DNA of 23,664 nt from a virus (taxonomy: Duplodnaviria; Heunggongvirae; Uroviricota; Caudoviricetes): IMG/VR virus record IMGVR_UViG_2663763326_000004, positions 1-23,664 of that record. One strand, 5' to 3'. This document shows, piece after piece, positions 315 to 23,664 of this stretch. The notes under the pieces are model-generated. The model was not told the DNA's origin and made no database searches. It was given only the letters and a program-made list of their open reading frames with translations. The translations under genes and the position numbers were made by a program. Every line of letters starts with the position of its first letter. Position 1 is the stretch's first letter.

Positions 315-318
315 GTAA

Positions 319-1409: not shown

Positions 1410-2951
1410 ATGCCAACAGTTCCAATTTCTATGAGAAAACTTAAAGAAATTCTTAGGCTTAAATACGGTGTTGGACTCAGCCATCGACAAATTGGTCGTA
1501 GTCTTGCAATCTCCCCTTCCGTTGTATCCAGATATGCTAATCGGGCGGCTCAACTTGGCATAAAGCAGTGGCCCTTACCTACAGGATGGGATGATACAAA
1601 ACTAAAACATGCGTTCCTTCAGACCCAGGTTAAGATGAAGAAGCACTCTCTGCCTGACTGGGCTACAGTACACCGGGAACTGCGTAATAAATGCGTGACG
1701 CTGCAGCTACTCTGGGAAGAATACTGTGAGCGTAATCCAGGCGGTTTTTACAGCTATAACCATTACTGCCGGATGTACCGTGAATGGCTCAAAACCACTT
1801 CACCATCAATGCGTCAGGTACATAAAGCTGGCGAAAAACTTTTCGTTGATTACTGTGGACCTACCGTTGGCGTTACCGACCCTGAGACCGGAGAAATAAG
1901 AACTGCTCAGGTCATCGTAGCTGTTCTCGGGGCATCAAGTTACACATGGGCAGAGGCCACCTGGTCTCAGCAGCTTGAAGACTGGGTGATGAGTCATGTT
2001 CGCTGCTTCCAGTGGTTGGGTGGCGTTCCTGAACTTGTTGTTCCGGACAATCTGAAAAGCGCCACATCCAGGGCATGTAAGTATGATCCTGACGTTAACC
2101 CTACCTACCAGCAGATGCTTGAGCATTATAATGTCGCAGTTTTGCCTGCGCGGCCACGTAAACCGAAAGATAAAGCCAAAGCTGAAGTTGGCGTTCAGGT
2201 TGTTGAACGCTGGATCATGGCCCGAATCAGGCATGAGATCTTCTACAGCCTTGCATCGCTTAATCAGCGCATTCGGGAGTTGCTGGAAAGACTGAATAAC
2301 AAAATAATGCAGAAGTTGGGTTATTCACGTGCAGAACTCTTCATCCAGCTTGATAAACCCGCACTGAAGCCTCTTCCTGAAGCCAGTTACAGTTACACCC
2401 TGGTGAAGAAAGTCAGAGTTCATGCCGATTACCACGTGGAAATCGACAAACATTACTACTCGGTTCCATGTTCGCTGTTAGGCCAGCAACTGGAAGCATG
2501 GATCTCCGGAGAACTGGTAAGACTCTTCAATCAGGGGCAGGAGGTTGCTGTGCACCCGCGCAAGCGTACTTATGGCTACAGTACCCGCAACGAGCACATG
2601 CCTGAAGCTCATCGACAGCATGCCACCTGGACGCCAGAGCGTCTTCTGGAATGGGCGGGGCACATAGGCAGTGAAACTCATAGTTATGTGCTTCATATAC
2701 TGAACTCTCGTCCACATCCGGAACAAAGCTATCGCTTCTGCCTTGGACTCCTGAACCTTCATAAAAAATACAGTAAAGCCAGACTTAATGCAGCATGTGC
2801 AAGAGCTCTGAAAACAAAGGTATGGCGTCTGTCAGGTATTAAATCGATCCTGGAAAAAGGTCTGGATAAACAACCTGTTCAGGATCCAAAACCAGATCTG
2901 TTATCCACGATGGAACACGAAAACGTACGCGGCAGTGAGTATTACCACTGA
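1410..2951 (+). CDS. istA: IS21-family transposase IstA (513 aa)
   Basis: N-terminal helix-turn-helix region followed by an integrase-like catalytic core. It is immediately followed by istB, the typical IS21 arrangement. Confidence 0.9.
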   Translation: MPTVPISMRKLKEILRLKYGVGLSHRQIGRSLAISPSVVSRYANRAAQLGIKQWPLPTGWDDTKLKHAFLQTQVKMKKHSLPDWATVHRELRNKCVTLQLLWEEYCERNPGGFYSYNHYCRMYREWLKTTSPSMRQVHKAGEKLFVDYCGPTVGVTDPETGEIRTAQVIVAVLGASSYTWAEATWSQQLEDWVMSHVRCFQWLGGVPELVVPDNLKSATSRACKYDPDVNPTYQQMLEHYNVAVLPARPRKPKDKAKAEVGVQVVERWIMARIRHEIFYSLASLNQRIRELLERLNNKIMQKLGYSRAELFIQLDKPALKPLPEASYSYTLVKKVRVHADYHVEIDKHYYSVPCSLLGQQLEAWISGELVRLFNQGQEVAVHPRKRTYGYSTRNEHMPEAHRQHATWTPERLLEWAGHIGSETHSYVLHILNSRPHPEQSYRFCLGLLNLHKKYSKARLNAACARALKTKVWRLSGIKSILEKGLDKQPVQDPKPDLLSTMEHENVRGSEYYH

Positions 2952-2962
2952 TACGGGATCCA

Positions 2963-3712
2963 ATGATGAATCATCTTTACGAACAACTGACCGCACTTAA
3001 ACTCACCGGCTTCCGTGATGCGCTTAAAAAGCAACTTGCTCAACCGGGCACATACCAGGAGCTGGGCTTCGAAGAACGCCTGTCATTACTGACAGCAGAA
3101 GAACTAACCTGCCGTGAAAACAGGAAGGCAGAGCGTCTGATCAAACATGCACGGTTCAGACTTAATGCTGAGTTATCAAAGCTGGATTATCGTAACAATA
3201 GAGGGCTGGACAGGGCCCTCATCCGTTCACTCAGTCAGGGAAACTGGTTAACCCTGAAACAAAATATTTTACTGACCGGGGCCACCGGCAGCGGTAAAAC
3301 GTTCCTGGCATGTGCACTTGGTCATAATGCCTGCCGACAGGGATACAAGGTCTACTATTATCGCCTTAAAGCGCTGATGGAACAGTGCTATCAGGGGCAT
3401 GCTGATGGAAGATACAGCAAACTTTTGACCAGGCTGAATAATAGCGATCTGCTGCTTCTGGATGACTGGGGGCTGGAACCTCTCTCATCAGAACAGCGTA
3501 GCGACCTGCTGGAAATAGTGGATCTGATGTACCAACGAGGCTCAATCATCGTAGTGAGCCAGTTGCCGGTGGAAAACTGGTACAAAATGATCGGAGACTC
3601 CACACATGCGGATGCCATCCTAGATCGACTGGTTCATGGCAGTATCAAGATCGAACTTAAAGGAGAATCAATGCGGAAAATACAATCTCCGTTGACCGAA
3701 GGAGATCAGTGA
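2963..3712 (+). CDS. istB: IS21-family helper ATPase IstB (249 aa)
   Basis: Walker A motif GATGSGKT and Walker B motif LLLLDDWG, in a DnaC/IstB-like protein directly downstream of istA. Confidence 0.9.
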   Translation: MMNHLYEQLTALKLTGFRDALKKQLAQPGTYQELGFEERLSLLTAEELTCRENRKAERLIKHARFRLNAELSKLDYRNNRGLDRALIRSLSQGNWLTLKQNILLTGATGSGKTFLACALGHNACRQGYKVYYYRLKALMEQCYQGHADGRYSKLLTRLNNSDLLLLDDWGLEPLSSEQRSDLLEIVDLMYQRGSIIVVSQLPVENWYKMIGDSTHADAILDRLVHGSIKIELKGESMRKIQSPLTEGDQ

Positions 3713-3744
3713 AGGTAATTTAAAAACGGTTCTGTGAAAGTGAC

Positions 3745-3785
3745 ACGAACCGATCTCCATCGATGTTACTCACCGATCTCCTTCA
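3745..3785. repeat. IS21-family right terminal repeat region
   Basis: Two direct copies of CCGATCTCC (ACCGATCTCCATCGATGTTACTCACCGATCTCC) at the right IS end, inverted relative to the left-end repeats. Confidence 0.55.
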
Positions 3786-4368
3786 CGGTAATACGCACCG
3801 CTTTGAGAAACAACAATTTTCCCATTTTTACCGACACCTCACCGCCGTTGCGTTCTGCAAGACGGGTCAGGAATTTCGCATCAGACTCCTGCGACTGGTC
3901 GATGTGCGGGATTTTAATTCCGGCCAGTGACGGAGCGACACTGGCTTCCAGCCTGTTACGGGAGGCTATCGCCTCAACAATCGCACCGAGCGTGGTGTCA
4001 TGCCAGGAGCCTTCACGGCGGGAATTGAGCGTCCCGCGGAAATCTGCACTCCGGGCGCGGATGGTGACCACATCCGGCGCGCCCCGGTGTTCAACCTCAT
4101 CAACGGTGAATTTCCCTTTGCATACCAGGGCAAAACCTTTCCAGCCGATATACACCGTCAGGACAGCGCCACGAACCGGCAGCCCGACCTGCCCGTCGGC
4201 ATCGTTCAGTTCAATATCAAGCTGGTCAGCCTCAAAGCCCCGGTTATCCGTCAGGGTCATGCTCATCAGACGGTCACTGATATTGCCGGTAATATCCCTG
4301 CTGTCGAGCATCAGCATGTAATCCGGCGTCAGCGTACTGCCTGCATCAAATGTCAGTGCATCCAGCAT
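3766..4368 (-). pseudogene. D: Tail protein D, N-terminal fragment truncated by the IS21-family insertion
   Basis: Starts MLDALTFDAGSTLTPDYMLMLDSRDITGN, with its ATG overlapping the U stop (TAATG). The last few codons (KEIGE-stop) are read from IS-terminal sequence. Confidence 0.8.
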
Positions 4369-4847
4369 TATCCCGCCCCCGTCATACCTGTGAATTTAGT
4401 CGCCATACTGCCAGCCTTACCGATGAGCGATTCCGCCTGTTTACCGATATCGCCATAAAGCGCGGCCAGTGATTCGTCAACGCGGGTGAGCGACAGCGTA
4501 AAATCAATTTTTCGGGGTGTGCCGTCTGCAAAGAAAATACTCCCTGTTTCACTCACCCTGCTGATGACATACATGCCGTAAATCATGCCGGTACCATCCA
4601 GCAACGGCCACGCCCGACCTTCCTCTGCCATCAGCCTGAGCGTGGTCATCGTCAGCTTGCCGCCGGTCAGTTCGGGATAAAGCACACCGGCCAGCGTCAT
4701 GTTTTCCTCGCCAACGCCGAGAAACTGGTAGGCATCCCGTTTACCGATACGGGAATTTGACGGCCAGCGATAATCTGATTCACGCTGCATGGTCTGGTGT
4801 GGCAGCGTCTGGCGCATAAAAACAAACATACCTAACGCGAGCATCAT
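4368..4847 (-). CDS. U: Tail protein U (159 aa)
   Basis: Length and position match P2 gpU between T and D. Confidence 0.85.
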   Translation of the reverse strand: MMLALGMFVFMRQTLPHQTMQRESDYRWPSNSRIGKRDAYQFLGVGEENMTLAGVLYPELTGGKLTMTTLRLMAEEGRAWPLLDGTGMIYGMYVISRVSETGSIFFADGTPRKIDFTLSLTRVDESLAALYGDIGKQAESLIGKAGSMATKFTGMTGAG

Positions 4848-4861
4848 TTTTCGTCACCTCC

Positions 4862-7309
4862 TTAACCGTCATGCATCATGCTGGCACGGGAGCGCGCACG
4901 TTTATCCCGCTCGTATTTTTCGAGCGCATCCTGTAACTGGCGGTCAAGCTGTGTCCCCGGCGCAGTACCACCCGTCAGGCTGATGTGATATTCGTTTTTA
5001 CTCTGGTCCACATAAGAGCGGCCAGCCGGTGCCGTGACCGGCTGATAAGTCTGATAGCCTGCATAAGAGCTGGTCGCCGGAATATAACCACCGGTGCCAT
5101 ACGTGGCGGCATGAGTTCTGGCGGCGGTCTGGTCAAGTGTGTCTGACTCTTTGTTGATAACACCGAGTTTTTCCAGTACCCAGTCAATACCGCTGCGCAG
5201 TTTGTTGAACGCATTAAGCGGCAGCATCAGCGCGTCAGCCAGTGCCTGCCCGAACATGACCCCCGTGTCACGGCAACTGTTCAGGGTGTCCTGAGTGGCT
5301 TTGACCGGGGCAATCAGGTTTTTAAACCACTGCCACGCGGCCTGTAACTTTTCACCCAGCCAGTCAAACACCGGCTTAAGTGGCGTGAACAGTTCCCCCA
5401 CCGGCGCAAATGCCACTTTCAGCCCTTCAACCACACCGCCAAAGAATGCGCTGACAGGCTCCCAGTATTTACGGATAAGCAACGCCCCGGCGACAATTGC
5501 GGCCACCACGGCCACAACCGGCCAGCTAATAGCCCCGATGGCGGTCATAACAGCACTGCCAACCGTCGTGAAGACTGCCCCCATTGCGCCTGCTGCCGCG
5601 ATGATGGCATTGATGCCGGTGATAACCGGCCAGGCTGCGAGGCCAATGGCACCGATGACACCAATCAGCGCCAGCGCGCCACCGGCAATGATGCCGATGG
5701 TTGACACCAGTGATTTGTTTTTCTGGATCCAGCCGTCGAGTTTTAACACATACTTTGTGGCCGTCTGCGTGAGCTTACGCAGCGCGCCTTCCTGCTGGTC
5801 AAACAGGTCAGTCCCCACCGCCTCATAAGCGGACTGAAACTCTTTAAAGTCACCGCCTAGGTTGTCCTGCATGATATTTACCAGCTCGGCGGTCTTCCCG
5901 TCTGAGGCTTTAAACGCAGCGGTCAGTTTGTCCAGCTTTCCGGTTGAGGCGGCAGTCATCAGCACGGCGGCGGCTGAGCTGGCCTCCTCCCCGAAAATAG
6001 TTTTCATGTATTCAGCCTGCTGGGCAGTACCGAGCCGGTTTTTCTCAAAACTGGCCTGCATTTCTTTCAGAATGGTAAATATTGGCCGGGTGTTTCCCTT
6101 GCTGTCTGAGGTTTTCACTCCAAGCTCTTTGAGTGCATCCCATGCTTTTCCCGTCGGTGCCTGCAGGCGGCTTAACACGGCACGGCTTCCCGTCCCCGCC
6201 ATTGAGCCTGTGATTTTTGCATCATGCAGCGCCCCGACCATTGCGGCGGTTTCTTCAATGCTGACACCGGCATTTTTTGCCACAGGTGCGGCATAGGTCA
6301 GCGCATCGCTCATGCCGTCAAAATCGGCGGCGGTTTTGTTCATCGTCATGGAGAGAACATCCCCGATATGAGCGACCTTATCGTTTGAAAGCTGAAAGGC
6401 GGATTTCATCCCCATCAGCAGGGCGGCGTTTTCTTCCATCGTGCGGCGGTTCGCCAGCGCCATATTCAGCGTGACCGGCGTTGCCGCCTGAATGGCATCA
6501 ACATCCCCACCCGCTTTCGCGATGATTATCTGTGCACCGGCCGCATCATCCGCCGAGGCGGCGGTATTGTCGCCGAGCTGGCGCGCCTGTTTGCGTAGTG
6601 CGGTCATTTCGGCGGAGTCTTTTGCCACTCCGAGCACGGCCTGCAATTCTGAGTTTTTCTGCGCAAACTCATAACCGGGCATCAGCAGCTTAACTCCGGC
6701 CATCGTTCCCGCCGCCGCAATCCCCACACCGGCAGCGCCCACCGAGGCCATATTTCCGGCCAGTTCCTTTCCGGCCTGATAACGCTGTTTTACTGCGTTA
6801 AGTTTTGCCTGTTGCGCACTGACACGCGCCAGCGCATCACGCTGACGGTTAAGCTGTGCGGTGGTTTCACTGATACGGTTTTTCAGTCCCTGCTCATCAT
6901 GTGCAAGATTGCGGGTATTAATTCCCACAGCGGCCAGTTCCCGCTGCTGGCGTTTAAGGGAATCTGTCAGGCGGTTATATTTCGCCTGTAAGTCCTCCGC
7001 CGCACGCTTTGCGGATTCCAGCACTTTCGCCTGAGCACGGGTCGGACGTTCAGTGTTTTTAAACTGTGTGGCAAGGGCTTCGGCCTCCTGCCGTGCCTTT
7101 TCAAGTGCATGACCAGTCACGGCGAGCTGTGCGCTGGTCTTGCGAAATCCCTCAATACGGGATGCGTGACCGTTCAGCTCGCGCAGTGATTTTTGTGTTT
7201 CCCGGATATCCCCCGACAGCGACTTGCTCGCTGTGCGGATGGATTTAAACGGGCGGGATGCCTGGTCAACAGCCCTGAGCAATACCTGTAATTTTACATT
7301 GTTACTCAT
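4862..7309 (-). CDS. T: Tail tape measure protein T (815 aa)
   Basis: Long coiled-coil N-terminal half and a Gly/Ala-rich hydrophobic segment. The 815-aa length matches P2 gpT and the start ATG overlaps the E' stop. Confidence 0.9.
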   Translation of the reverse strand: MSNNVKLQVLLRAVDQASRPFKSIRTASKSLSGDIRETQKSLRELNGHASRIEGFRKTSAQLAVTGHALEKARQEAEALATQFKNTERPTRAQAKVLESAKRAAEDLQAKYNRLTDSLKRQQRELAAVGINTRNLAHDEQGLKNRISETTAQLNRQRDALARVSAQQAKLNAVKQRYQAGKELAGNMASVGAAGVGIAAAGTMAGVKLLMPGYEFAQKNSELQAVLGVAKDSAEMTALRKQARQLGDNTAASADDAAGAQIIIAKAGGDVDAIQAATPVTLNMALANRRTMEENAALLMGMKSAFQLSNDKVAHIGDVLSMTMNKTAADFDGMSDALTYAAPVAKNAGVSIEETAAMVGALHDAKITGSMAGTGSRAVLSRLQAPTGKAWDALKELGVKTSDSKGNTRPIFTILKEMQASFEKNRLGTAQQAEYMKTIFGEEASSAAAVLMTAASTGKLDKLTAAFKASDGKTAELVNIMQDNLGGDFKEFQSAYEAVGTDLFDQQEGALRKLTQTATKYVLKLDGWIQKNKSLVSTIGIIAGGALALIGVIGAIGLAAWPVITGINAIIAAAGAMGAVFTTVGSAVMTAIGAISWPVVAVVAAIVAGALLIRKYWEPVSAFFGGVVEGLKVAFAPVGELFTPLKPVFDWLGEKLQAAWQWFKNLIAPVKATQDTLNSCRDTGVMFGQALADALMLPLNAFNKLRSGIDWVLEKLGVINKESDTLDQTAARTHAATYGTGGYIPATSSYAGYQTYQPVTAPAGRSYVDQSKNEYHISLTGGTAPGTQLDRQLQDALEKYERDKRARSRASMMHDG

Positions 7310-7729
7310 TCGTGTTTCCGCTTCGCCGGAGCGCCTTTTCGCGCCATGTGATGAGTTCGGTCAGGCTCATGGGATATAGTTCTGATGGCGGCCAGTGAAA
7401 TATCACTGCCACATCCGCCATCAGGTCATCGACCGACAGATTTTTCGGGAACGTTACTGCACCGAGTTCGGCGACAAAAAACCGACCACCTTACCGGCAA
7501 GCGCCACAAGGTCAGGCAGTTCCAGCGCGGCGACTTCCTGCTCGGTCAGCATCGGTGCCGTCATGCGCGGCAGCACCTTAATCAGTGCATCGACTTCGGA
7601 GTTTGCGACCGCAGCCAGACTGACACCGCGCAGCGTCCCGGCATTGGGTTTCATCAGCGTGACCTGTTCGATAACCTGCTCACCACGCTTGACCGGATTG
7701 TCCAGGGTAATCACATTTTCTTTGTTCAT
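7302..7729 (-). CDS. E': Tail assembly chaperone E+E', produced by a programmed -1 ribosomal frameshift
   Basis: A slippery heptamer T-TTT-TTG (plus 7485..7491) lies near the 3' end of E. The -1 frame stays open for about 60 codons and ends at a TAA overlapping the T start (ATGAGTAA). Confidence 0.75.
7454..7729 (-). CDS. E: Tail assembly chaperone E (91 aa, zero-frame product)
   Basis: A 91-aa ORF ending GFLSPNSVQ, which matches P2 gpE length and position. Confidence 0.85.
   Translation of the reverse strand: MNKENVITLDNPVKRGEQVIEQVTLMKPNAGTLRGVSLAAVANSEVDALIKVLPRMTAPMLTEQEVAALELPDLVALAGKVVGFLSPNSVQ
7485..7491 (-). other. Slippery heptamer for the E/E' -1 programmed frameshift
   Basis: Coding-strand sequence G-GTT-TTT-TGT, i.e. 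an X-XXY-YYZ heptamer T-TTT-TTG read as TTT TTG in the zero frame. Confidence 0.7.
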
Positions 7730-7785
7730 GGTTTTCTCACTTCTGAATCAGGGTTAACCGGTCAGCCAGGCTGACCGGATGAAAA

Positions 7786-8304
7786 TCACAGGCCGATATT
7801 GCGGCGGTGTTGCTCCAGCCGGTCGACGCCGTTCACCTTCTCAATCATGTTGATGGTGTCGATTTCGACCAGCTCCTTACCGTCCATCGTCAGCCGGAAA
7901 TAGGTGCAGACCACGGAGATTTTCGACTCGGTGTCTTCTCCCTGTTTACCCTCTCCGGTGTCGATTTCTTTCTGACGTCCACGCATGACCACTTCGACGG
8001 CCACCGTTTCGCCGGTATCGTCACGCTGGTAAGAGCCTGCAAAACGAATCGGCACGGCATCCACGCCGGTTGCGGCGTAAAGCTCCCAGATAACCGAATC
8101 CGGGAAGCCCCCGAGCGACCACTCCATTGACAGCGCATCGTCATCAAGGCCGAGGTCTACCGGTGCGCTGCCGTTCATCCCCGCACCGCGATAGTTTTCG
8201 AGCTTACGGGTCAGTTTTGGCAGCGTGACGGACTTTGCAACGCCCTGATAGCTGTAGCCGTTCAGAAAGACGTTCATTAACTTGAGTTTGCGCGGCATTG
8301 CCAT
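7786..8304 (-). CDS. FII: Tail tube protein FII (172 aa)
   Basis: 172 aa, directly downstream of FI, matching P2 gpFII. Confidence 0.9.
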   Translation of the reverse strand: MAMPRKLKLMNVFLNGYSYQGVAKSVTLPKLTRKLENYRGAGMNGSAPVDLGLDDDALSMEWSLGGFPDSVIWELYAATGVDAVPIRFAGSYQRDDTGETVAVEVVMRGRQKEIDTGEGKQGEDTESKISVVCTYFRLTMDGKELVEIDTINMIEKVNGVDRLEQHRRNIGL

Positions 8305-8316
8305 CGGTCAGGCTCC

Positions 8317-9507
8317 TTAATTGCTGTTAACCGAGGTGACCAGATTTGCCAGGTATTTATCGGTAATACGCTGGCGCAGGGTCAGGTTTTCGAGAGGAGG
8401 CACCGGGGTATAGTCGTAGTCGATATACAGTTTGCCGGCCTTGAGGGTTTCCGCATCGTTGGATTCTTCGCTAAACCAGCAGGTCGCATCCACGATATAG
8501 CCGTTTGTTTTCAGCTCACGGAATTTGGCATTGATGCCGTCAACGATGTCGCGAATCAGCGTTGCGGTGATGGGCTTGTCCACCGCCCACATGTGCGCCT
8601 CAGCCATCGTGTCGGCCAGCACCTGCGCGGTGCGGGTGTAGTTTTCAAAGAGGAACAGCGGGTCATCAGAGCAGGTACGGTTACCCCAGAAGCGGAAACC
8701 GTCACGGCGAATCAGCGTTGTGACACCTGACTCGTTCAGCAGGTCAGCATCGGTGCCGGACTCCTGCAAATCCCAGAATACGGACGCACTGATGCCGGTA
8801 ACACCGTTTACCCCGACGTTGGACAGCGTTTTATGCCAGCCCTGCTCCTGGTCGATTCTGGCACGCAGACCCAGCGCACGGGCGGTGGCATACGCGGTGG
8901 CGGTGGTACTGGTGACCGTATCCCATGCGAGGAAATCCGGCCAGATTACCATCAGCTCACGCTGGCTGAAATTCTGGCGGTAGGCTTTCACCTCGGAAAT
9001 GGTTTTACAGCCCCATGCGCTGATATACCCGAAAGCGCGCAGCTTCTGGCAGACTGATGCCAGTGCAACAGCCACCTCTTTGGTGTCCAGTCCCGGCACA
9101 CCGAGAATACGCGGTTTAACACCGGTTACCGACTCTGCCGCCAGCAGGGCTTTCAGTCCGGTATACTGACCGTTTTCGTCAGTGGTGCCGATGATATTGG
9201 AAACGGTCTGCGCGAGTTTCGTTTCTTCGTCGTCGCCGGTGCCGTCTTCCACACGCACGACAACGGTGACCGGTTTTGACTGGTCAGCGATGGCCTGCAG
9301 CGACGCCGCCAGCGTGCCTTTTTTACCGGCCTTTGCAATTGCGCTCTGCACATTGGTAATCAGCACAGGTTTATTGAGGGGGAAGGTTTCCGCATCCGCA
9401 TCGCTGGCCGTGCAGACCATGCCGACAATGGCAGTGGATACAGTGGAAATGACGCGGGTGCCGTCGTTAATCTCCAGCACCTGCACGCCGTGATGATAGT
9501 CACTCAT
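8317..9507 (-). CDS. FI: Contractile tail sheath protein FI (396 aa)
   Basis: 396 aa starting MSDYHHGVQVLEINDGTRVISTVSTAIVG, with a GGAG ribosome-binding site 8 nt upstream. Matches P2 gpFI. Confidence 0.9.
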   Translation of the reverse strand: MSDYHHGVQVLEINDGTRVISTVSTAIVGMVCTASDADAETFPLNKPVLITNVQSAIAKAGKKGTLAASLQAIADQSKPVTVVVRVEDGTGDDEETKLAQTVSNIIGTTDENGQYTGLKALLAAESVTGVKPRILGVPGLDTKEVAVALASVCQKLRAFGYISAWGCKTISEVKAYRQNFSQRELMVIWPDFLAWDTVTSTTATAYATARALGLRARIDQEQGWHKTLSNVGVNGVTGISASVFWDLQESGTDADLLNESGVTTLIRRDGFRFWGNRTCSDDPLFLFENYTRTAQVLADTMAEAHMWAVDKPITATLIRDIVDGINAKFRELKTNGYIVDATCWFSEESNDAETLKAGKLYIDYDYTPVPPLENLTLRQRITDKYLANLVTSVNSN

Positions 9508-9534
9508 CCGTTTAACTCCGTGGTTAATGGGTGC

Positions 9535-9600
9535 AACTATTTTCTGTTGTGCAGAGCATGAGACGCTATTTGACCTGGCTGGTCAGTGGATGAAACAACA
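9535..9600 (-). promoter_or_regulatory. Candidate late promoter for the FI-FII-E-T-U-D operon (Ogr-dependent, P2 P_F-like)
   Basis: P2 late promoters carry an Ogr dyad (TGT-N12-ACA) centred near -55. Upstream of FI there is a partial match, TGT-ttcatccactga-cCA, and an A/T-rich -10-like AGAAAATAG about 25 nt before the ribosome-binding site. Confidence 0.3.
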
Positions 9601-10081
9601 GATAAAGAAAAGGCGAGCAATCAGCCCGCCTGCCTTGATTTGTACTCTTTCAGTTTCCAACTGACAAATTACGTAACCAAAACTCTGTCAAATCTGACAG
9701 TCTGCTTTGAGCGAAAAACAGGTATTGAGATACATAATAAATCATCTCAATTTTCAACTTTTCTGCCACTTAACATCTTGAGTAGTAAATAGTACAAAAC
9801 TATCTACTGCCGAAGGGCTCTAGGAAGTATGGTTTCTGCACAATAAGACTTATATCGGCTCACGGGGAGCCAAAAGATATTCATTGCCTAGAATTTGCAG
9901 ATGAGGTGGTAATCTGTACTGGGGCGGTACTGCAACAGCTATGTATATTTCCACTGCGGTAATCTGTACCAGCAGGTAGAAGCTGTTATACATCACCGCC
10001 CCTGTAGTGCTAATCCGGAGATAGCACTACTCTCATCAAGGCTTGTTCTTCCATAAACCGCAATAGGTGTTAGTTTTAGCC

Positions 10082-10939
10082 TTAATGTAAAATTAACAAT
10101 TGATTCAGACGCTTATGTAATTTTGTGGTTCTAAATGTATGATGATCGTAACTCATACGCATATAACTATCTATCTCATCCAGACGCATGTTCTTATTTA
10201 CAGATATATCAGTTTCATACATCATTTTTAATATACATGTAAAGTCATGACCATTGCATATAGAAAAATGATCTGGCGACATTAATTCTAATTTACGCAT
10301 TTCATTATATAAATTTTTCGCATTAAAATCCTTATCAGTACGACTCCTGCTAAGCACATGATTTATATATTTGGTTTCATCAACTACAACATCTGTCCTG
10401 TTAATACTTACAAAATTCCTGTAATTCATTCCTTTGAAATTAAGATTGCTATGTGTAAGATAATTGTACCATTTGAGAAGTCCGATTTTATAGCATGCAC
10501 AAAGGATGTTCATCTTTACATCCTGACAGAATATATCGGCCAATTCCCCTTGAATTAATTTTCTATCTGTATGTGACATAATGAATTTATCAACCGCACC
10601 ACCTTTTACTAACATCATTTCAAGGTCATGAGCATCAGTATAAAAAATCCCCTCGTGATTTATTCCGCTTAACTCATCAAAGTCCGCGTCACATACACCA
10701 TACACAGCATTATTACCTGCACGACGTAATTGACTAACAGCCAATATTACTTCACGTTTTCCATTTTCAGGTGATTCATAAATGATTCTATTATCAAGCC
10801 GATATGCATTGAAAAATCGGATATCTGAAATGCCCTCAACCACAATCAATATACAACGTTGATACATTTCATTTCTGAATAAAAGCATCATACTACTCAA
10901 CCAATCATCTTCGCGAACAGCATTGCGTAATGACATCAT
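10082..10939 (-). CDS. DUF4435/TOPRIM-like (OLD-family-type) putative nuclease, AriB-like effector of a PARIS-like system (285 aa)
   Basis: N-terminal ILIVVEGISD (TOPRIM glutamate) and downstream VYGVCDADFDE (DxD metal-binding motif). GC content is very low, and the ATG follows the upstream ATPase stop with no gap (TAA ATG). Confidence 0.7.
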   Translation of the reverse strand: MMSLRNAVREDDWLSSMMLLFRNEMYQRCILIVVEGISDIRFFNAYRLDNRIIYESPENGKREVILAVSQLRRAGNNAVYGVCDADFDELSGINHEGIFYTDAHDLEMMLVKGGAVDKFIMSHTDRKLIQGELADIFCQDVKMNILCACYKIGLLKWYNYLTHSNLNFKGMNYRNFVSINRTDVVVDETKYINHVLSRSRTDKDFNAKNLYNEMRKLELMSPDHFSICNGHDFTCILKMMYETDISVNKNMRLDEIDSYMRMSYDHHTFRTTKLHKRLNQLLILH

Positions 10940-12184
10940 TTACTCGTTTCCTTCTGAAAGCTGTTGGCTTTCATTTCTATTTCTAATCATTTCATATAGA
11001 TCGTATGTTAATTCCCAATTCTTACTAATTACTTGTGGTGAATGAGTAGCAATAATGACCTTTTCATACTTGTTAATCTTTTGTATTTTTTTGAGAGAAT
11101 CCAAGAAAGTTTGTTGCCAGGCGACATGTAATGATATTTCTGGCTCGTCTATAAGAATTACTTTTTGTGAAACAAAATCGAAAATCAAATTAAAAAGAAG
11201 AACTATTTGGTTCTGTTCACCTGATGAAAGCAAATTACGATCAATAACATCGCCATTGTGACTTTTGAAATAAAATCCGTTATCTCTATCAATCATCACT
11301 TTTTTAAAAGCTAAAACCTTTTCTTTCAAAATTGATTCAAATAAATCAATTTTTTGATGTAATGTCTGAAACGGTGACAATTTTCCAAGGGCATCTTCAA
11401 TATATAGATCCAACACACTTAGATATTCATTGCTACTATAAAAACTTGTGCTTTTTTGAGGCATTAGCTCGTTATCAGCCTGAATAAGGCCATAACGCAT
11501 ATAATGTCGACGTTTATCTTGAATACCATTTAAGCGATCTTGAATATTTTCTGATGAAAATCGTTTTGATTGCTCTAAACGCTCAAATAATCGAATAGGA
11601 AATGTAGCGTCTAATTTTTGTGATAATGCAGCGGAATCATCTTGTGCATTTTTCATTAAATATTTTAATTTTCTAGCACATAAGTCAATGACTGTTTCAT
11701 CAACAGCTTTGACTTGTAATCGATCTGCACATATAAAAGATACGTCTTCTTTCGATGTAATATGACTTAACACATCCGAAGATAATGGTTTATCAGTTCG
11801 TAATTTTTGTTTTGGTTTAACATCCCCCCTATGCAAGCTTACATAAAATAACTCTTCCATAATAGATTCATCTGTCTGTAACTTGAGTCTTTCTTCCGTT
11901 CTGTTTCCTGAGCTATTATCCAGATGATTCAATATTAAACCATCTTTATTGGTGTCATGAGTAATTGAAACAGAGCCACCTTGAAAATCAATTTTAATAA
12001 AATCAAAATTAAGTTTACAGAGAGCATTTAATTCATTTGTAAGAATACTATTGATGATTTTAAGAATCATTGTCTTACCATATCCATTTGGACCAGTAAG
12101 CATAGTAATTTCATTGTTATCCAAGGGAATTTCATAATCAAGGAGACCAAATAGTTTTTTTACTTTTAAATGTATCAATTTCAT
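10940..12184 (-). CDS. ABC/SMC-like ATPase (AAA_15/AAA_21 type), AriA-like sensor of a PARIS-like system (414 aa)
   Basis: Walker A GPNGYGKT, an ABC-signature-like LSSGEQ, Walker B VILIDEPE and an H-loop IIATHSP, with a long helical insertion between the nucleotide-binding halves. AT-rich codon usage is unlike the flanking phage genes. Confidence 0.75.
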   Translation of the reverse strand: MKLIHLKVKKLFGLLDYEIPLDNNEITMLTGPNGYGKTMILKIINSILTNELNALCKLNFDFIKIDFQGGSVSITHDTNKDGLILNHLDNSSGNRTEERLKLQTDESIMEELFYVSLHRGDVKPKQKLRTDKPLSSDVLSHITSKEDVSFICADRLQVKAVDETVIDLCARKLKYLMKNAQDDSAALSQKLDATFPIRLFERLEQSKRFSSENIQDRLNGIQDKRRHYMRYGLIQADNELMPQKSTSFYSSNEYLSVLDLYIEDALGKLSPFQTLHQKIDLFESILKEKVLAFKKVMIDRDNGFYFKSHNGDVIDRNLLSSGEQNQIVLLFNLIFDFVSQKVILIDEPEISLHVAWQQTFLDSLKKIQKINKYEKVIIATHSPQVISKNWELTYDLYEMIRNRNESQQLSEGNE

Positions 12185-12199
12185 ATCAACCTCGCAGAC

Positions 12200-12280
12200 G
12201 ATGAATTATAACCATTTATTACATGGCGCATATGAAATGCAATATATCATTGTCATGAGTTGCATTTCAAACATATGCCC
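12200..12280 (-). promoter_or_regulatory. Candidate sigma70 promoter(s) with an embedded inverted-repeat operator, upstream of the ATPase gene
   Basis: On the coding strand, TTGAAA, an 18-nt spacer and TATATT, followed by a second perfect TATAAT about 20 nt before the ATG and a GAGG ribosome-binding site. The inverted repeat GAAATGCAA-N17-TTGCATTTC brackets the first -35 and -10 elements. Confidence 0.4.
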
Positions 12281-13214
12281 CAACATCAATGCTAAATCCG
12301 TGATTAAAATTAATAAACTTCTGGTTTTTGCAAATAATTTCTTGCCCTAATAGTTTGGAAATACCTCTTTTAAATTTATAGTGAATAATATTACGCCCAT
12401 TTAGTTCTCTCTTTGCAGAACTGAACATGTCGGGAGCTACTGTGTGGAGAAACACTGAAACGATCGTTAGTGAATATTTGCACACTGGTGATAGTACTAA
12501 ACAGCCCTTTGGTCATGTCCGAAAAATAGTGACTCGTACAACATGATCGATGTGATAGCATTTATGACAGTGAAACATAACAATCACCTTTGAACATTTT
12601 CCATACGTGCATTATACCTATTAAATCTAAACAAAACAAATAGATATAAAATATTCATCCGCGTATCTTCATGCTCTCATATACCACATACGGGAGCCTT
12701 AACATCAAGTACTAAGCACGTCGTGAAGCTGTTTCCGTTAAGACGACTTTGCACTACTTGACTGATTAGCCATGCCTGCTTGTCTATCACACATTTAAAG
12801 TTTTTCATCGCTAACGTAGTTAGTCCATTCCCTTGAATGGCGTTTTACCAGTCTATATATGACAAATATCGTACTTTTTCCACATTCAGTCCAATTCATT
12901 CACCGCTCCCGATTCACCTACAACACCCTCTCAACGACGTTCTCTGTACCTGTAATACCGGCGCAAATTGCGTCGAAAATGTCGTTCTGCATCGCATAAA
13001 CCTTCATCAGATTTGGCCTACAATGCAGCGAATAGTCTGAAATTAAAAACCGATGATGATGGACTGTACTGTTCATGCAAGTCTGGTCGCTCTGTGCCTC
13101 ATCAAGGAATGAATAATGATCTTGGCGACGTCTACTCTTGGCACAGAGCGGACTGTCAGATTAGTTTTTACTCTGTGCCATAGATGAGTAATCTCACACC
13201 AGATCTAATACAAT

Positions 13215-13793
13215 TTATTGCGGCATTTCCGGCCATTCTATATCCGGAGCATCTTCCGGCTGAACGCGATTCAGTAACACACGGTATTTTTTCCAGTGTG
13301 TCAGGCTTAACTTTTCTTCCTCGGTAGCCATATCTAAATCGACAGCATCCTGCAGCGTGGCAATGATTTCACCTGCATATGCAATCTGCTCTTTCTTCTG
13401 AGACTCCGCCGCTCTGACAAGCGCATCACGCTCTGCATTCTCATCATTCACCCACGCATTTCCGTTCCATTTCTGATAATCCCCCTCCGGGGAAATGGCT
13501 GTCACGTCTGGAGGTAATGCGCCAAGTTCAGAAATATAAATGGCTGCTCCCGTTTTCGTTTCGTAGACAGTCTTTCCGCGATGATCTTCCATCAACTCCC
13601 ATTTCATTTCATCTGCATTGAAAACGGCTGCATAACCAGCAGGAATATCAGGTGGTGCAATATCTGTACTGTTTGCAGGCAGGCCAGTATACGGCGGAAT
13701 ATATGCATCACTTTCGCCAATAAACTCATTGGTTCCATCAAGTAAATTGAAAACGCGGATAGTTTGTGCTTCTGCACTCATTCTGAAAGCCAT
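13215..13793 (-). CDS. G: Tail fiber assembly protein G (192 aa)
   Basis: Directly downstream of H with its ATG overlapping the H stop (TAATG). Size and position match P2 gpG. Confidence 0.8.
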
Positions 13794-16411
13794 TATGCAA
13801 GCCTCACAATATAGTTAAATGCGATGTTTTTGACGGTGTTTTCGGTATTACCAGTAGCATTTACGGTAATGGAATGCCCGTGTGAGCCAATAGCAACAGT
13901 GTGTGAATGTGCACCAATACCAACAGTATGGTTATGTGCTCCAATGTCGACTGTATGTGCATGATTGCCTGATGAACTTGTAGTCGTAGCACCTTTATCA
14001 CTTCGCGGAACACCATAATCTGCACCGCCTGATTGCACGCTCACAGCAAAACCGACGGTATGTGTATGATTGCCAGAAGTATTGGTTGATTTTGTGCCGT
14101 GGTTAAACGTACTGACTGTTTTTGTCCCGTAATCAAATGAACTGGTCGTTTTCGTTCCTAAGTCCGTATTTGACGCACTGGCGCTGTGAGTATGCGATTT
14201 AATCCCGTCCTGTTCCTGTGACAATACGGCACGCCCACTGGCGGGTTTGCCCTTGATTGTCCAGCCGCGCATATCAGGAATAACACCAGAAGGATAGGCA
14301 ATAGCCAGTTTCGGATATGCAGCCTTATCAAACGTCTGCCCCTGCATGATCGCATAGCCTGCAGGTGGTGTATCTGATGGCCACGGCAGCGGAACACCTG
14401 GCGGAAACGCTTCAATATCTTTCGTCCCGTCAAAGGTTACGCCGTTAATTGTCCTTGCCGTTTTCAGCTTTGTTGCTGTAGCAGCATTGCCGGACAGTTC
14501 GCCTGAAAGACCGGCGCTGAAGGTTTGTTTCGCCGCCCATGTCTGGGCTTCGTCAATAATTGGCACACGTCTTGTGGTGATCGTGCGACTTCCCGGATTT
14601 CCTGAAATACGCACCATAAAAAAGCGGTAGTTCGCTTTACTTACAGTGCTGCGCCATACATGCATTGAGCGCCCCGCACCGGAATCATCACTCGGACCAA
14701 CTGAGATGTTTATCAGGTTGCCATCAATGACGCCCCAGTCCATACCTTCGGGAATGTTGGTCATGTTATCAAGCCGAACGGTTATCAGACTGCCCGGCAC
14801 AAAGTCGTAGGTCTGCCAGTCCAGGCTGGAGAGTTTTGCCACTGCACCGCCGATACCCAGATTCAGGGGAAGTGAATACGAGGTGTAGACTTCCCGCCAT
14901 TCGCTCCACGAGCTGCCGGTATAGACGCGCTCAAACGTGCGACCTTTAAGGGTTGCACCTGTTCCGGCAGTTGTATAACGCTGCCATACGTTAACACCAT
15001 CAAAGCGCCTCAACACTTCCAGAATCCCGAGGACTGTCACGCCGTTTCCGTCCAGTATTGGACCGTTGGTCGCTTTACCTGTAACGCTGTAAATACCTGG
15101 TGAAGTCACCTCATTCAAATCCCCGTCGTAATAACGACTCTCTGACTGATGACCGACTCTTAACCACGGTTCCCACTGTGGATTTGATGCATCCCAGCTT
15201 GCCGCAAGGCAGCGGACATACATATTTCCACGGCGAGTGGTATAACGTTGCGTTCTTCCATAATTCCCGCCTTCGAGGATCTCAAGCATCCCCTGAGCAA
15301 AGCCGCCTTCCTCTGGATAATTGCGTTCATATGAAGCTATAGCCGAGCTACTGTTACGCCATAAACCAAGATGCTCGGCGGCTCCAAGCGTATTCAGGTC
15401 TATAGTCGTACTCAAAGGGCGGGTAGCAGATTGAGTGTGACGCCATACGCCCCACGGACCATCAGTGCCATTCCACTTATTGGCGAGTTTACGCATGTAA
15501 ACATTGCCGTCTCTCGTGGTAAAGCGTTGCGTACCTGCAAAATTGCCGGCAGCAAAAACCTCAAGCACACCGACAGCATTATCTTCCGGGAAATTTTTCT
15601 CCAGTGTTGCGTTAGTTGAGGTAGCTTTAGACCAGATCCCCAGATAAGCCTTAACGGGACCAAATGTATTCAGGTCGGCATCAACCGGCATTTCGCCATT
15701 GTTTTTCATAAACGTCAGACTGGTAACGCCAACATTGTCCAGAAAAGCTGATTTATCCTGGATATCTGCACCATTCTGATTTTTCGCCAGACGTGAATTT
15801 GCGTTGTCATTTGCTGCCTTGACCGCTTTTGGCGTTGCCGCCAATGACTCACTGGTGCTGTTTGTTGCACTGCTTAACTGAGTAAAACCTTTTTCTGTCA
15901 GCGTGGCGTCAGGATGGCGGCGGGACTGCTCATGTTCTGCGATTTTGTCATCGACGTAATCCTGCGTCGCCATCACTGTGCTGGCATCAATACTCAGCTC
16001 AACGGACGCCACGTTACTGACAATAATAACCATGCGGCAGGTCTGCGCACGCCCGGAGCCTTCAGCGAGTTCAGGCTTATAGCTTTCTGCCATGTTGGCG
16101 ACCGCAATCAGTGTTCCGGCATCGTCATACAGACCAAGCTCACGCATCCAGAAGCCGCCCACTTCGGGCGGTACAACCAGTTCAGCCACGATATAGTTTT
16201 TATTCTTATTATCCACGCTGACTTTATTCAGAGCGTGACGCCAGACCTCATGCACCAGTTTCGTCTGACCGGCATCCGGCACCGGCAATTTGCCATTACC
16301 GTCACCCACGGCCATTGCAGACAGGTTTACTTTTTTCCCGCCGGGGACAGTGGCGGCTGCCAGCTTCGCGGCTCCGGCAGTAGTGATAACGGTTTTAAAT
16401 TTCGTGCTCAT
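13793..16411 (-). CDS. H: Tail fiber protein H (872 aa)
   Basis: Conserved P2-type N-terminus [30 protein letters not shown]. The central region has three tandem repeats of about 60-70 aa and the C-terminus has repeated HxH motifs (GNHTHT, GNHAHT, AHNHT, AHSHT, SHGHS). Confidence 0.9.
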
Positions 16412-16421
16412 TGTTTCTCAC

Positions 16422-16952
16422 TTATCCGGGATAAACAGTAATAACATCACCATCACAGACCACACCGCCTGTATACAGATAGCCGGGAATGTCCTGGATA
16501 ATGTTCAGGCCGATAAGGTGGCGACTTGCGGGTTTGGCATCGGCAATCAGCCGTTCCATTTCCAGATACATTTCCTCTGTGATACCGCTTTCCAGCACAC
16601 CGATATCAAGACGAAAGGTTCCGGCCGGGTCGTTTGTCTCCCACCATTCCTTTACGTTAATGAGATAGCCGAGCGGCTCCACCACACGCCGGATTGCGCC
16701 GACAGTGCCTTTATGACAGTGGATGAAATAGGCATCGCGGATAACGGCGCGTTTTGTCGCTTCCGGCCACTTTTCATCCCACCTGTCGACCGAAAACGCC
16801 CACGCCAGCCACGGCAGCAGATTTGCCGGGCAGGTGTCCGGGTTCCACAGCTCACGAATACTGACCGGCGTTTTTTCAATTTCCGCACAGGCTTTTGCGG
16901 CGGCGACCTCAAGCGGTGATGAGCCGGTCGGCAGCAGGCGCGAATCACTCAT
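16422..16952 (-). CDS. I: Baseplate assembly protein I (176 aa)
   Basis: 176 aa between J and H, matching P2 gpI. Confidence 0.85.
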   Translation of the reverse strand: MSDSRLLPTGSSPLEVAAAKACAEIEKTPVSIRELWNPDTCPANLLPWLAWAFSVDRWDEKWPEATKRAVIRDAYFIHCHKGTVGAIRRVVEPLGYLINVKEWWETNDPAGTFRLDIGVLESGITEEMYLEMERLIADAKPASRHLIGLNIIQDIPGYLYTGGVVCDGDVITVYPG

Positions 16953-17853
16953 CCGAGCCTCCGGTCACGACGCGGTATTCGGTACAGAAAGACGCCTGCG
17001 TATTGTTGAGCACGATGTCGGCCAGCGGTGCAGCCAGTTCGACACGCTGCACGCCTTCCACATGCAAAGCGGCATAAATGGCAGACAGACGGATGTCGCG
17101 CCCCAGCCGGTGCTGTGCCGTGATATACGCTTCCAGTTTTTTCACGGCGGCAGCGCGGATGGGTTCGCTTTCGGGACCAGGGTAAAGGTAAAGCGTGGCG
17201 TTTATCTGGTATTCAACAATGGCGGCAGACTGCACGGTCACGCGGTCGGCCACCGGCCTGACGTCCTCGCCATTCAGGGCGTTACGCACCACCGCCAGCA
17301 GGTCTTCGGATGCGACGCCGTTATTTTCACGTGACAGCACAGAGATGGTGACGCAGGCCGGAGAAGGACTGGTGACAGAGATATCCGCGACACGCCCGTC
17401 GGCACTGCGACCATGATACTGATAGGCTCCCACCGACCCGGCGACGCTTAAACCTTCAAACGCCTGCTGAATACGCAGACGATAATCGGTGTCAGATTCC
17501 ATCACTGCCGGTGTCGGCGGGATGGTCGAATCATCTGCCGGGGTGATAATCAGGCGCGTGGTGTTGTAATTGGCACCAATCACATCAAGGTCGTTACCGG
17601 CGGCACAGGCCAGCATCACCGCCCGTGCGGCCTCATTCACACGCTGACGCCAGATAAGCTCACGATAAGCATTTTCCTCCAGCAGTTTGACGAGAGGCTC
17701 GGATTCCAGCGTCAGGGTACGGGCGACCGCCTCCTGCTGGTCTTCCGGGTAAAGGGAAATCAGTGTCGCCTTGCGTTCAGCGAGAATGGTTTCAAAGTCC
17801 AGCTCCTCGACCACATCCGGTGCGGGTAGCTGGTTCAGGTCGATAATCGGCAT
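16945..17853 (-). CDS. J: Baseplate assembly protein J (302 aa)
   Basis: 302 aa, overlapping the start of I by 8 nt, matching P2 gpJ. Confidence 0.85.
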   Translation of the reverse strand: MPIIDLNQLPAPDVVEELDFETILAERKATLISLYPEDQQEAVARTLTLESEPLVKLLEENAYRELIWRQRVNEAARAVMLACAAGNDLDVIGANYNTTRLIITPADDSTIPPTPAVMESDTDYRLRIQQAFEGLSVAGSVGAYQYHGRSADGRVADISVTSPSPACVTISVLSRENNGVASEDLLAVVRNALNGEDVRPVADRVTVQSAAIVEYQINATLYLYPGPESEPIRAAAVKKLEAYITAQHRLGRDIRLSAIYAALHVEGVQRVELAAPLADIVLNNTQASFCTEYRVVTGGSDE

Positions 17854-17857
17854 GGTT

Positions 17858-18205
17858 TCAACTCACAGGGATGGTTAACGAAAGTGGCTGGCCGGTGTCG
17901 TTGTGCTGGCCGGTTAGCGTAACTGTCATTCGCCCGTCAAAGCTGCGCGCCGTGGTGACGGATGACAGGGTGACGCGGGGTTCCCATTTCAGCACCGCCA
18001 TGTAACAGGCGACCTTAATCTGCAACTCAAGCGCCGGGGTCTGCGGCTGGTCAATCATTGATGCCAGCAATGAGCCGTAATCACGACGCATCACCCGTGA
18101 GCCGACCGGCGTGCGCAGGATATCGCCGATACTCTGGCTGATATGCTCAAGGTCAGTGACAGTCAGGCCATCACTGCGATTCATTCCGAGATAACGTGCT
18201 GTCAT
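17858..18205 (-). CDS. W: Baseplate assembly protein W (115 aa)
   Basis: The ORF 17858..18298 contains MTARYLGMNRSDGLTVTDLEHISQSIGDILRTPVG starting at the internal ATG at 18205. The upstream 31 codons overlap V and are not part of W. Confidence 0.85.
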   Translation of the reverse strand: MTARYLGMNRSDGLTVTDLEHISQSIGDILRTPVGSRVMRRDYGSLLASMIDQPQTPALELQIKVACYMAVLKWEPRVTLSSVTTARSFDGRMTVTLTGQHNDTGQPLSLTIPVS

Positions 18206-18836
18206 AGAGGACTCCCGGTTGTGCCGCCGCTGTCGCCGGGTGTTTATGGGTATGCAGTACCTTACCGTTTGATGAGAGTTCACCGCCGGTGTGTTCAATG
18301 TTGCCGCGCATCGTCCCGCCCTTCTGCACTTCCAGCGTGCCGGTAGTCAGCTTGTTTGTGCAGACCACCTCCGGCGTGTCCAGGGTGACACGGGTTGACG
18401 CTTTCACCGTGACCACCGGTACCGTGGCAGTAACAGAATCAGAAGCCGTCACGCTGGCCGTTTTAATTCCGCTTACCGTGAGTGCACTGGTTTCGGGTTC
18501 ATACTCAATCACCGCCCCGTCAGAGAAACGGATATGCAGGGCATCAGCCGACGCAGACGGCGCAGGGTTATCGCCGGAATAAATCCCCGGCAGAACGAAC
18601 GCCGTGTCGAGTTCACCGCCCACGGCCAGAATCAGCACCTGTTCCCCCACGGAAGGTGCCCACCATGTGCGCGAACGACCGGCGCGCTGGGTCAGCCACT
18701 GCAGCCAGTCGGTGCACATGCCGCCGGTCTGCACACGGCAGCGACCGGCGTTAAGGTCGGTTTCGACGACAAGGCCGGTGCGGATCATGTTGCGCAGTGC
18801 GCGCGCGAGTTCCTGAATATTTGCGAGAGTGTTCAT
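18171..18836 (-). CDS. V: Baseplate spike/assembly protein V with an altered, extended C-terminus
   Basis: Starts MNTLANIQELARALRNMIRTGLVVETDLNAGRCRVQTGG. After ...KVLHTHKHP the reading frame differs from the frame that would end ...GDSGGTTGSPL at a stop overlapping the W start. A 1-nt deletion in a G-run near plus 18236..18240 explains this. Confidence 0.8.
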   Translation of the reverse strand: MNTLANIQELARALRNMIRTGLVVETDLNAGRCRVQTGGMCTDWLQWLTQRAGRSRTWWAPSVGEQVLILAVGGELDTAFVLPGIYSGDNPAPSASADALHIRFSDGAVIEYEPETSALTVSGIKTASVTASDSVTATVPVVTVKASTRVTLDTPEVVCTNKLTTGTLEVQKGGTMRGNIEHTGGELSSNGKVLHTHKHPATAAAQPGVLYDSTLSRNESQ

Positions 18837-21554: not shown

Positions 21555-21758
21555 TTACTCCCACAGATTGACAGTTTCAGCCACGGGCGCGGTCTGAACG
21601 TCGGGCAGTTCGACGGCGGTGCCGTGCGGCAGCACCGCACCCAGTTCAGCCAGTCCCGGATTTGCGGCGAGCACAGTCTCGACCACGCCCTCAGTGCGCC
21701 CGTAATACCGGACACAAATGGCGTCGAGCGTGTCGCCCTGTAGCGCAAAGGTCTTCAT
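21555..21758 (-). CDS. X: Tail protein X (67 aa)
   Basis: Internal start MKTFALQGDTLDAICVRYYGRTEGVVETVLAANPGL within ORF 21555..21827. Confidence 0.85.
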   Translation of the reverse strand: MKTFALQGDTLDAICVRYYGRTEGVVETVLAANPGLAELGAVLPHGTAVELPDVQTAPVAETVNLWE

Positions 21759-22266
21759 CAGATTTGACTCACGATGCAGCGTGGCTTGTCCTGGATGCGC
21801 GCCACTGCCCAGCGCATATCCCGCCACAGTTCATCAATGGTGCTGTCAATGCTGTCGGCCTTCTTGTCGCCTTTCGCACTGGCATCCACGCCGCGATAAC
21901 GCTCATAAAGCGACGCGGTCGCCATCGCACACACGGCGCGCTCGTAGTAAAAAACTTTGATACTTTCACCGTCGATGTCGTCCGCCGGAACGTCCGCCAG
22001 ACGCGTAAAACCGGCGGCAATTTTCTGTTCGCGGTACTCGTACAGCTCCGCATTTGTTTCCGCCATGCCTGACTTGATGGCCTCACGCAGACGGGCGGGG
22101 CGACGGTCTGCTCAAGGCGCATACGTTCCCGGACGCGCTTCGGGTCGATATCGGGAAAAAAGAACGTGTTTTTAATCACCGGCTCGTCGCCTGCCGGTTG
22201 CGGGATGACCACCGTACCCTCACCGGACACGGGAGCCTCCTTTCGCGGAATAATCAGCGTCATCAT
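21758..22266 (-). pseudogene. L: Head completion protein L, frameshifted
   Basis: The N-terminal part (MMTLIIPRKEAPVSGEGTVVIPQPAGDEPVIKNTFFFPDIDPKRVRERMRLEQTVAP) is in one frame and the rest (MAETNAELYEYREQKIAAGFTRLADVP...) is in ORF 21758..22066. The span is 509 nt, one short of 510 nt for 169 aa, with the deletion near plus 22093..22100. Confidence 0.75.
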
Positions 22267-22363
22267 GACTACCTCTGAAAAGTCGGGCGGTGGACGCCGT
22301 GCAGTGTCAGGTGATTCCACCTCACTGACCGGCGTGCCGCCCTGGCGCGGGCGCATTCGGTTG

Positions 22364-23096
22364 TTAACTGGCTTTCTTTTCGGGCGTCCACGTTTTGCCG
22401 GTGTCCACGCTCCGGGTCTTACGCGGGGTACGGGTGCCGCTTTTGGCTGCGGCTCCGGCTTCGTTTCAGCTCCCGCTCAGTCGTTCAATCTCTTTTTGAC
22501 GCCTGCCTGACAGTCGAGCTGTGTCGCACGTTGCAGATGCGCCAGCGCCCTGCGGCATCACCAGCGTCACGCAGAAACAGACCGGTGATTTTGTGCAGCT
22601 TTGCGCGCACTTCATCAGGCATGTCAGCTGTGGCGGTCAGTTCAAGGGTGTCCGTCAGCAGGCGGGGATCCACAGACTCACCGCAGCGTGGGCGCGCATG
22701 GCCGCGAGCGCGACCTCCTCGGTGAACATGTACGGCGGGGTACGGCGGTGTTTACCCGGCATGGTCAGACCGTACTTCAGGGCATAACGGGCAATCTCCA
22801 GCGCACCGCAATATCGCCGGTATCCAGACGCCACAGCATGACCGTCATCAGAATGTCATCCTGTGCGCCTTTGCCCTGCTCCAGCACGCCGTTCACCCAC
22901 GGCAACCAGAACGGCAGCAGTTCGCGCTTTTTCGCGGCCTTCAGCTCTTTTGAATAAATCGCTTTCAGTGTGCGCTGGTCTGCGGCCAGCTTGACCAGCA
23001 TCTGCTCATAGACAGTTGCATGTCGCAGCGGCGGCTTCCCGCTGCGCGGTCATCGCTGCCGAGACCGCATCATGTGGCGCTGTGCGGGACTCGTCA
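22364..23096 (-). pseudogene. M: Terminase small (endonuclease) subunit M, multiply frameshifted
   Basis: Recognisable segments (MTSPAQRHMM; MLVKLAADQRTLKAIYSKELKAAKKRELLPFWLPWVNGVL; PYMFTEEVALAAMRAHAA; LLTDTLELTATADMPDEVRAKLHKITGLFLRD) lie in different frames. At least four 1-nt deletions in G-runs are placed near plus 22548, 22682, 22805 and 23065. The end coordinate is approximate. Confidence 0.65.
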
Positions 23097-23125
23097 TCGG
23101 TTACGCTCCCGGCTCTGCGGTCGCC

Positions 23126-23664
23126 TTAGCCGTGTGTGGAGAAGTCACCGACCTTAATTTTTTCCACCAGACAACCGGCGGCGTAGTCTTCCACCACGTA
23201 ATCAATGTTCATTGACTCGTAGTTCTCCACGCGATCAAGTTTCGGGTTTTCCTCAATCACGCGGCGATGGCTGTCATCCATGTAGTAGATGGACAGGTTT
23301 TCCAGCTTCGTGATGAGCATCGCATCCCCGGGAAGTACGGAACACGTACCGCCGGCAGATTACCGATGCGTTTCTGGCTGATGATGACGTCAGCGGCCAG
23401 CATTTCGCTGTTGTCCTGCTCCTTGTTGACGATGGGGAAATACTTGTCTGCCAGTAGCTGACGTCCCACAATCACCACAAGGTCAGGGTCTTCCTGATAC
23501 CACGGCTCAATCAGGTTGTTGGTCGCATCCATCACCAGTGCATCAAGGCTGGCATAATCACCGCCCTTGCCCACGCGGATAACCTCAGAGGTGGTGTGGC
23601 CTTCCTCGTCAGTGACCTTGCTCATCACGCGCGCCGGGGCTTCATTGCGGTATTTCTGCAGCCG
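23126..23664 (-). pseudogene. N: Major capsid protein N, 3' portion (gene continues beyond the window), frameshifted
   Basis: ORF 23257..23628 (...GRQLLADKYFPIVNKEQDNSEMLAADVIISQKRIGNLPAVRVPYFPG) and ORF 23126..23320 (MLITKLENLSIYYMDDSHRRVIEENPKLDRVENYESMNIDYVVEDYAAGCLVEKIKVGDFS) are consecutive parts of one protein in different frames. The shift is at a G-run near plus 23325..23331. Confidence 0.7.

Follow-up and report, generated by a model that had tools for sequence, protein, structure and literature searches.

Indels clustered in and around the terminase small subunit gene of a P2-like Escherichia coli prophage: a probable patch of error in the deposited sequence

Phage P2 and the P2-like prophage of Escherichia coli O25b:H4-ST131 strain 751 (NZ_CP103562.1) are the described systems closest to the locus considered here. 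Both share with it the gene order N-M-L-X-holin-lysozyme, in which M, encoding the small (endonuclease) subunit of the terminase, lies between the major capsid gene N and the head completion gene L. Strain 751 has an undamaged M, an ORF of 744 bp (L001 25371..26114), whose 247-amino-acid product (WP_000203434.1) is annotated as a phage terminase small subunit. The protein is 98% identical to P2 gpM (242 of 247 residues) and matches the Pfam family PF05944 (Phage_term_smal) over all 130 model positions, with an E-value of 1.2e-47.

Frameshifts in such a gene can be set against two kinds of reference data. Homopolymer indels are favoured most when mismatch repair is defective. Mutation-accumulation lines of E. 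coli with this defect gave 30,061 base substitutions against 5,324 small indels (PMC8510543). In long-read assemblies, homopolymer-associated indels are the dominant error and inflate the counts of frameshifted pseudogenes (PMC12007338).

The DNA analysed here is a viral record of 23,664 nucleotides (IMG/VR IMGVR_UViG_2663763326_000004, positions 1 to 23,664), hereafter the window. A sequence-only reading had singled out M as its most heavily damaged gene and had pointed to terminase inactivation as a possible route to domestication of the prophage.

The prophage and its closest relative

The window contains the minus-strand late-gene half of a P2-like prophage and starts directly past the stop codon of pflB. 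With ogrK at 319..537, the end of the prophage should thus be less than about 300 bp from pflB (window 1..320), which places the predicted attachment site in the region downstream of this gene, as in strain 751.

A megablast search of the whole window against complete E. coli genomes returned strain 751 as a full-length match with 99.9% identity; among the matches listed, this strain alone contains the whole window in a single piece. The two sequences are without any difference over positions 1..18236. The gene order in strain 751 starts with ogrK, D (split by ISEc12), U, T, E, E', FII, FI and a two-gene insert encoding an AAA ATPase and a DUF4435 protein, continues with G, H, I, J, W, V and the tail completion and morphogenesis genes, and ends with lysC, lysB, a lysA-like gene, lysozyme, holin, X, L, M and N.

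Of the disruptions seen here, only the insertion of ISEc12 into gene D looks real. Its features, taken from the annotation of strain 751, which is identical in this part, are the following:

619..4368, minus strand: gene D, late control D / tail protein, split by ISEc12
1410..2951, plus strand: istA of ISEc12, IS21 family
2966..3712, plus strand: istB of ISEc12, IS21 family

The same insertion is present, identical, in the independent assembly of strain 751, which argues for a genuine disruption of D. In strain 463 the IS sits in the tape-measure gene and not in D, and in strains 439 and 447, judging from their four-piece matches to the window, it also lies elsewhere than in D. The copy in D thus looks like both a lineage marker and a disruption of the prophage.

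The two-gene insert occupies positions 10082..12184 on the minus strand, between the tail sheath and tail fibre assembly genes. The scan for defence models used the copy of strain 751, which does not differ from the window in this stretch. The AAA ATPase (414 aa) matches the PADLOC models of AriA and PtuA, and the DUF4435 protein (285 aa) matches AriB (E-value 3e-21). The pair looks like a PARIS-type anti-phage defence system placed in a hotspot of P2 accessory genes.

Frame breaks in gene M

Gene M was delimited by alignment with strains 751 and 463 and with phage P2, and by the PF05944 matches of its fragments:

22364..23097, minus strand: gene M, P2-type terminase small/endonuclease subunit

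The fragment 22777..23001 covers model positions 1-64 (E-value 2e-24) and the fragment 22655..22834 positions 63-106 (E-value 4e-11). These matches, the domain hit of the intact homolog and its closeness to P2 gpM bear out the first identification of the gene as the terminase small subunit; its start codon is at 23097 and not at 23096, a trivial shift. As judged by sequence, M is a standard terminase small subunit of the P2 gpM type, and databases already contain its indel-free form.

We aligned M of the window with M of strain 751 and walked its reading frame explicitly along the DNA alignment. The gene is 734 nt long against 744 in strain 751, and differs from it by indels at 11 sites, ten of them losing 11 bases in all and the remaining one gaining a base, without any substitution:

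22376: deletion in a T5 run
22405: insertion of one C
22435: deletion in GG
22462: deletion in GG
22477: deletion in CC
22492: deletion in a T6 run
22547: deletion in a C4 run
22682: deletion in GG
22807: deletion in GG
23029: deletion of two bases in a G4 run
23064: deletion in a C3 run

All these sites lie in homopolymer runs, which on the plus strand are made of G at five sites, of C at four and of T at two. As written, M consists of 12 segments cycling through all three frames, and translation from its ATG meets a stop at codon 16. The continuous ORF of about 247 codons that is present in strains 751, 463 and S65EC and in phage P2 is absent, and gpM could not be made from the window sequence as it stands. 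The frame changes first noticed in M, at least four in number, are indeed present in the given sequence and had been undercounted. They had also been assigned each to a GG or GGG context; a homopolymer context does hold throughout, but G runs are found at only 5 of the 11 sites.

Distribution and nature of the differences

The window holds 21 indel sites, all confined to its last 5.4 kb. M contains 11 of them while representing 3.1% of the window (binomial P ~7e-12), and each of the other genes has at most two. The features concerned, other than M itself, are:

18237: V, 1-base deletion in a G/C run of 4-5 bases
19158: virion morphogenesis gene, 1-base deletion in a CC run (2 bases)
20565: lysA-like gene, 1-base deletion in a G/C run of 4-5 bases
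21279: holin Y, 1-base deletion in a G/C run of 4-5 bases
21758..22266, minus strand: gene L, head completion/stabilization, 1-base deletion at 22096 in a G5 run
22267..22363: non-coding L-M spacer, three indel sites (22298, 22318/9 and 22348)
22298..22547: core of the indel cluster, 10 sites in 250 bp, covering L-M spacer and 3' end of M
23101..23664, minus strand: gene N (3' part), major capsid protein; insertion of T at 23133 and deletion of G at 23327

Sites are sparse 5' of the cluster (18237, 19158, 20565, 21279 and 22096) and also past its dense core (22682, 22807, 23029, 23064, 23133 and 23327), whereas 10 of the 21 fall within the 250-bp core (binomial P ~5e-15). The highest density is reached in the L-M spacer, with three sites in 99 bp, that is 30 per kb compared with 14.8 in M. 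M is therefore the most heavily damaged gene by count, as had been proposed, but the densest part of the damage is outside it. Because density peaks in non-coding DNA, the cluster is centred on a stretch of DNA and not on a gene: indel density tracks DNA position rather than gene boundaries, and the unit of clustering is 22298..22547, not M. GC content does not account for this location, being flat over the cluster (0.60-0.62) and close to that of neighbouring regions. Successive sites of the core are separated by 20, 31, 29, 28, 31, 28, 16, 16 and 56 nt, a spacing more even than random placement would give (P ~0.006-0.008, in a post hoc test), which may reflect how the consensus was built.

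Over the 23.6 kb aligned, the window and strain 751 differ at 24 columns, corresponding to 19 deleted bases, two inserted bases, two columns of a CA/AC swap, and the last base. The swap is equivalent to one insertion plus one deletion, and no clear substitution relative to strain 751 was found across the full alignment. At position 23664, its last base, the window reads ...CAGCCG and strain 751 ...CAGCCAGCCG; this mismatch may reflect a substitution or else the beginning of a deletion that removes one tandem copy of AGCC (4 bases), and is unclassifiable because the window ends there. The deleted bases are strongly biased toward homopolymers: 18 of the 19 lie in runs of at least two bases (44.5% expected, P 5e-6) and 10 of the 19 in runs of at least four (6.4% expected, P 6e-8). 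Seventeen of the 19 are G or C, and seven of the deletions are in runs of just two bases.

As controls, we set three sister prophages, like the window, against strain 751 in the right-hand 7.3 kb:

Strain 463 vs strain 751, 7.3 kb: 29 substitutions, 0 gap columns
S65EC vs strain 751, 7.3 kb: 1 substitution, 1 gap column
Isolate 46 vs strain 751, 7.3 kb: 154 substitutions, 0 gap columns
Window vs strain 751, 7.3 kb: 3 substitution columns, none clear, 21 gap columns

Natural divergence of this prophage thus consists mostly of substitutions, whereas that of the window consists of indels only. In a search with the core region, none of the window indels was found in the 1492 complete E. coli genomes carrying the locus; the top identity was 97.2%, and no genome reached 99%. 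When the core was aligned with strains 751 and 463 and with phage P2, the window was the only one of the four to deviate at the indel positions; the other three read alike at each of them, and P2 departs from the two strains by substitutions only. Exact-sequence look-ups of ten ORFs created by the frameshifts gave no match apart from a 102-aa C-terminal piece of L, which is not diagnostic and is also present as a partial protein on many contigs.

Origin of the indels and comparison with known systems

We consider that the frameshifts of M are very probably errors in the deposited sequence, produced by a local quality problem, and not mutations carried by the bacterium. The indels have the two marks of an error patch, a concentration in homopolymers and a disregard for whether the DNA is coding or non-coding. 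The marks of a genuine pseudogene were not seen, since no indel is common to any of the 1492 independent assemblies and the spectrum, with 21 indel sites and no clear substitution, is unlike that of natural mutation. Even the mismatch-repair-defective lines cited above, at 30,061 substitutions to 5,324 indels, are far from the 21 to 0 of the window, and we see no natural mutation process that would yield such a pattern. Both the technical cause and the step at which it would have acted are read from the sequence pattern. About 1.2 kb (roughly 22100..23330, at its worst in 22298..22547) would have been determined at low quality, for which low read coverage, an unpolished long-read consensus or the use of low-quality read tails for gap closure are candidate causes. 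Runs of identical bases would then be under-called, each dropped base mimicking a frameshift, and the real gene would most likely be the intact 744-bp M of the near-clonal strain 751. The single indels in V, the morphogenesis gene, the lysA-like gene, holin Y and L, and the two in N, are of the same kind as those of M and should be held equally suspect.

Some observations count against an artefact. Seven deletions are in 2-base runs, which are rarely wrong in a polished long-read consensus of high coverage, so that one has to suppose either a very low coverage at this place or another chemistry. No error model that we can name accounts for core sites spaced so evenly, at about 28-30 nt. Neither of these two features favours a biological origin. 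A further point is that the real disruption of D by ISEc12 makes a neutral decay of the late genes conceivable.

Such a decay would mean that ISEc12 crippled the prophage, that selection on the packaging genes was lost, and that M, together with L, N, V, Y and others, decayed or was domesticated. It has in its favour that D is truly interrupted, which may have freed the late genes from selection, and that several of these genes are affected and not M alone. We nevertheless find it quite unlikely. It would have to produce 21 indel sites without a clear substitution in 23.6 kb, while natural spectra and the sister prophages show mainly substitutions, and to do so in a single record, with none of its indels in 1492 genomes. 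The IS insertion is shared by strain 751, which lacks the indels, and as no clear substitution separates this strain from the window, all 21 events would post-date an extremely recent split. Decay would also hardly have spared 18 kb of tail genes that are just as dispensable (P ~4e-14). Domestication through a real inactivation of the terminase, as first suggested for M, is therefore unsupported by differences that are indels only, lie nearly all in homopolymers, are private to the record and cluster across coding and non-coding DNA alike; and the continuous ORF of about 245 aa that re-sequencing was expected to reveal if M were intact exists, by proxy, as the 247-aa ORF of strain 751.

The tight clustering of events that are nearly all -1 deletions in G/C runs, with a density dropping on both sides, could instead recall a single localized burst of -1 frameshifts, for instance by error-prone break-repair synthesis of the Pol IV type near 22300..22550. 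When mutagenesis at breaks depends on Pol IV, -1 deletions in nearby mononucleotide runs are favoured, but known forms of break-associated mutagenesis leave well under one mutation per kb and repair event, and 10 events in 250 bp exceed this by orders of magnitude. Substitutions would be expected as well, one insertion and one swap are present among the events, and the sequence bears no mark of a break site, GC remaining flat at about 0.60-0.62 across the cluster. We thus hold such a burst to be very unlikely; if true, the packaging gene of a P2-like prophage would have been destroyed in one event without substitutions. That the window might be right and the intact M found elsewhere a product of reference-biased correction is virtually excluded: we found no support for this reading, and the intact version is carried by 1492 E. 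coli genomes assembled independently, by phage P2 and by at least 90 other phage records, and encodes a full-length PF05944 protein.

Two further candidates were considered. A repeat that short reads could not polish finds no support: several ST131 genomes have two P2-like copies, but strain 751, the closest relative, matches the segment only once. Programmed frameshifting or slippage was rejected, as it does not suit 11 sites that lack a conserved slippery motif, in a gene that is a plain continuous ORF in all relatives.

With an error patch as the preferred reading, the finding on M is mainly a caution. Taken at face value, the record describes a decayed terminase and a domesticated prophage; its pattern points instead to about 1 kb of unreliable sequence, and the pseudogene calls that it would give for M, L, N, V, holin Y, the lysA-like gene and the morphogenesis gene are unusable as biology until these genes are re-sequenced. 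Were the indels real, so dense a cluster made of indels only would be an unusual mutational event worth study.

Compared with known systems, M of the window occupies the same place as gene M of phage P2 in the late operon (N-M-L-X-Y-K, minus strand) and is about 96% identical to it at the DNA level, but its frame is broken 11 times, without a readable full-length product. The prophage also resembles the defective, IS-disrupted P2-like prophages of E. coli, exemplified by that of the ST131 strain 751, which lies beside pflB with the essential gene D split by ISEc12. The disruption of D is independent of the frameshifts of M and gives no evidence that M was inactivated; a claim that the prophage is defective should therefore rest on ISEc12 in D and not on M. 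The indels themselves compare best with the homopolymer errors of low-coverage or unpolished assemblies: they are nearly all 1-base indels, mostly deletions in runs, come without clear substitutions, occur in a single record and fall in coding and non-coding DNA alike, which agrees with the error class described in PMC12007338. Such errors, however, are usually spread over the whole assembly, whereas those of the window are confined to its last 5.4 kb with a peak in 250 bp, and many of them lie in runs of only two bases. This confinement, the sharp peak and the short runs point to a local problem of coverage or gap closure rather than to a global one.
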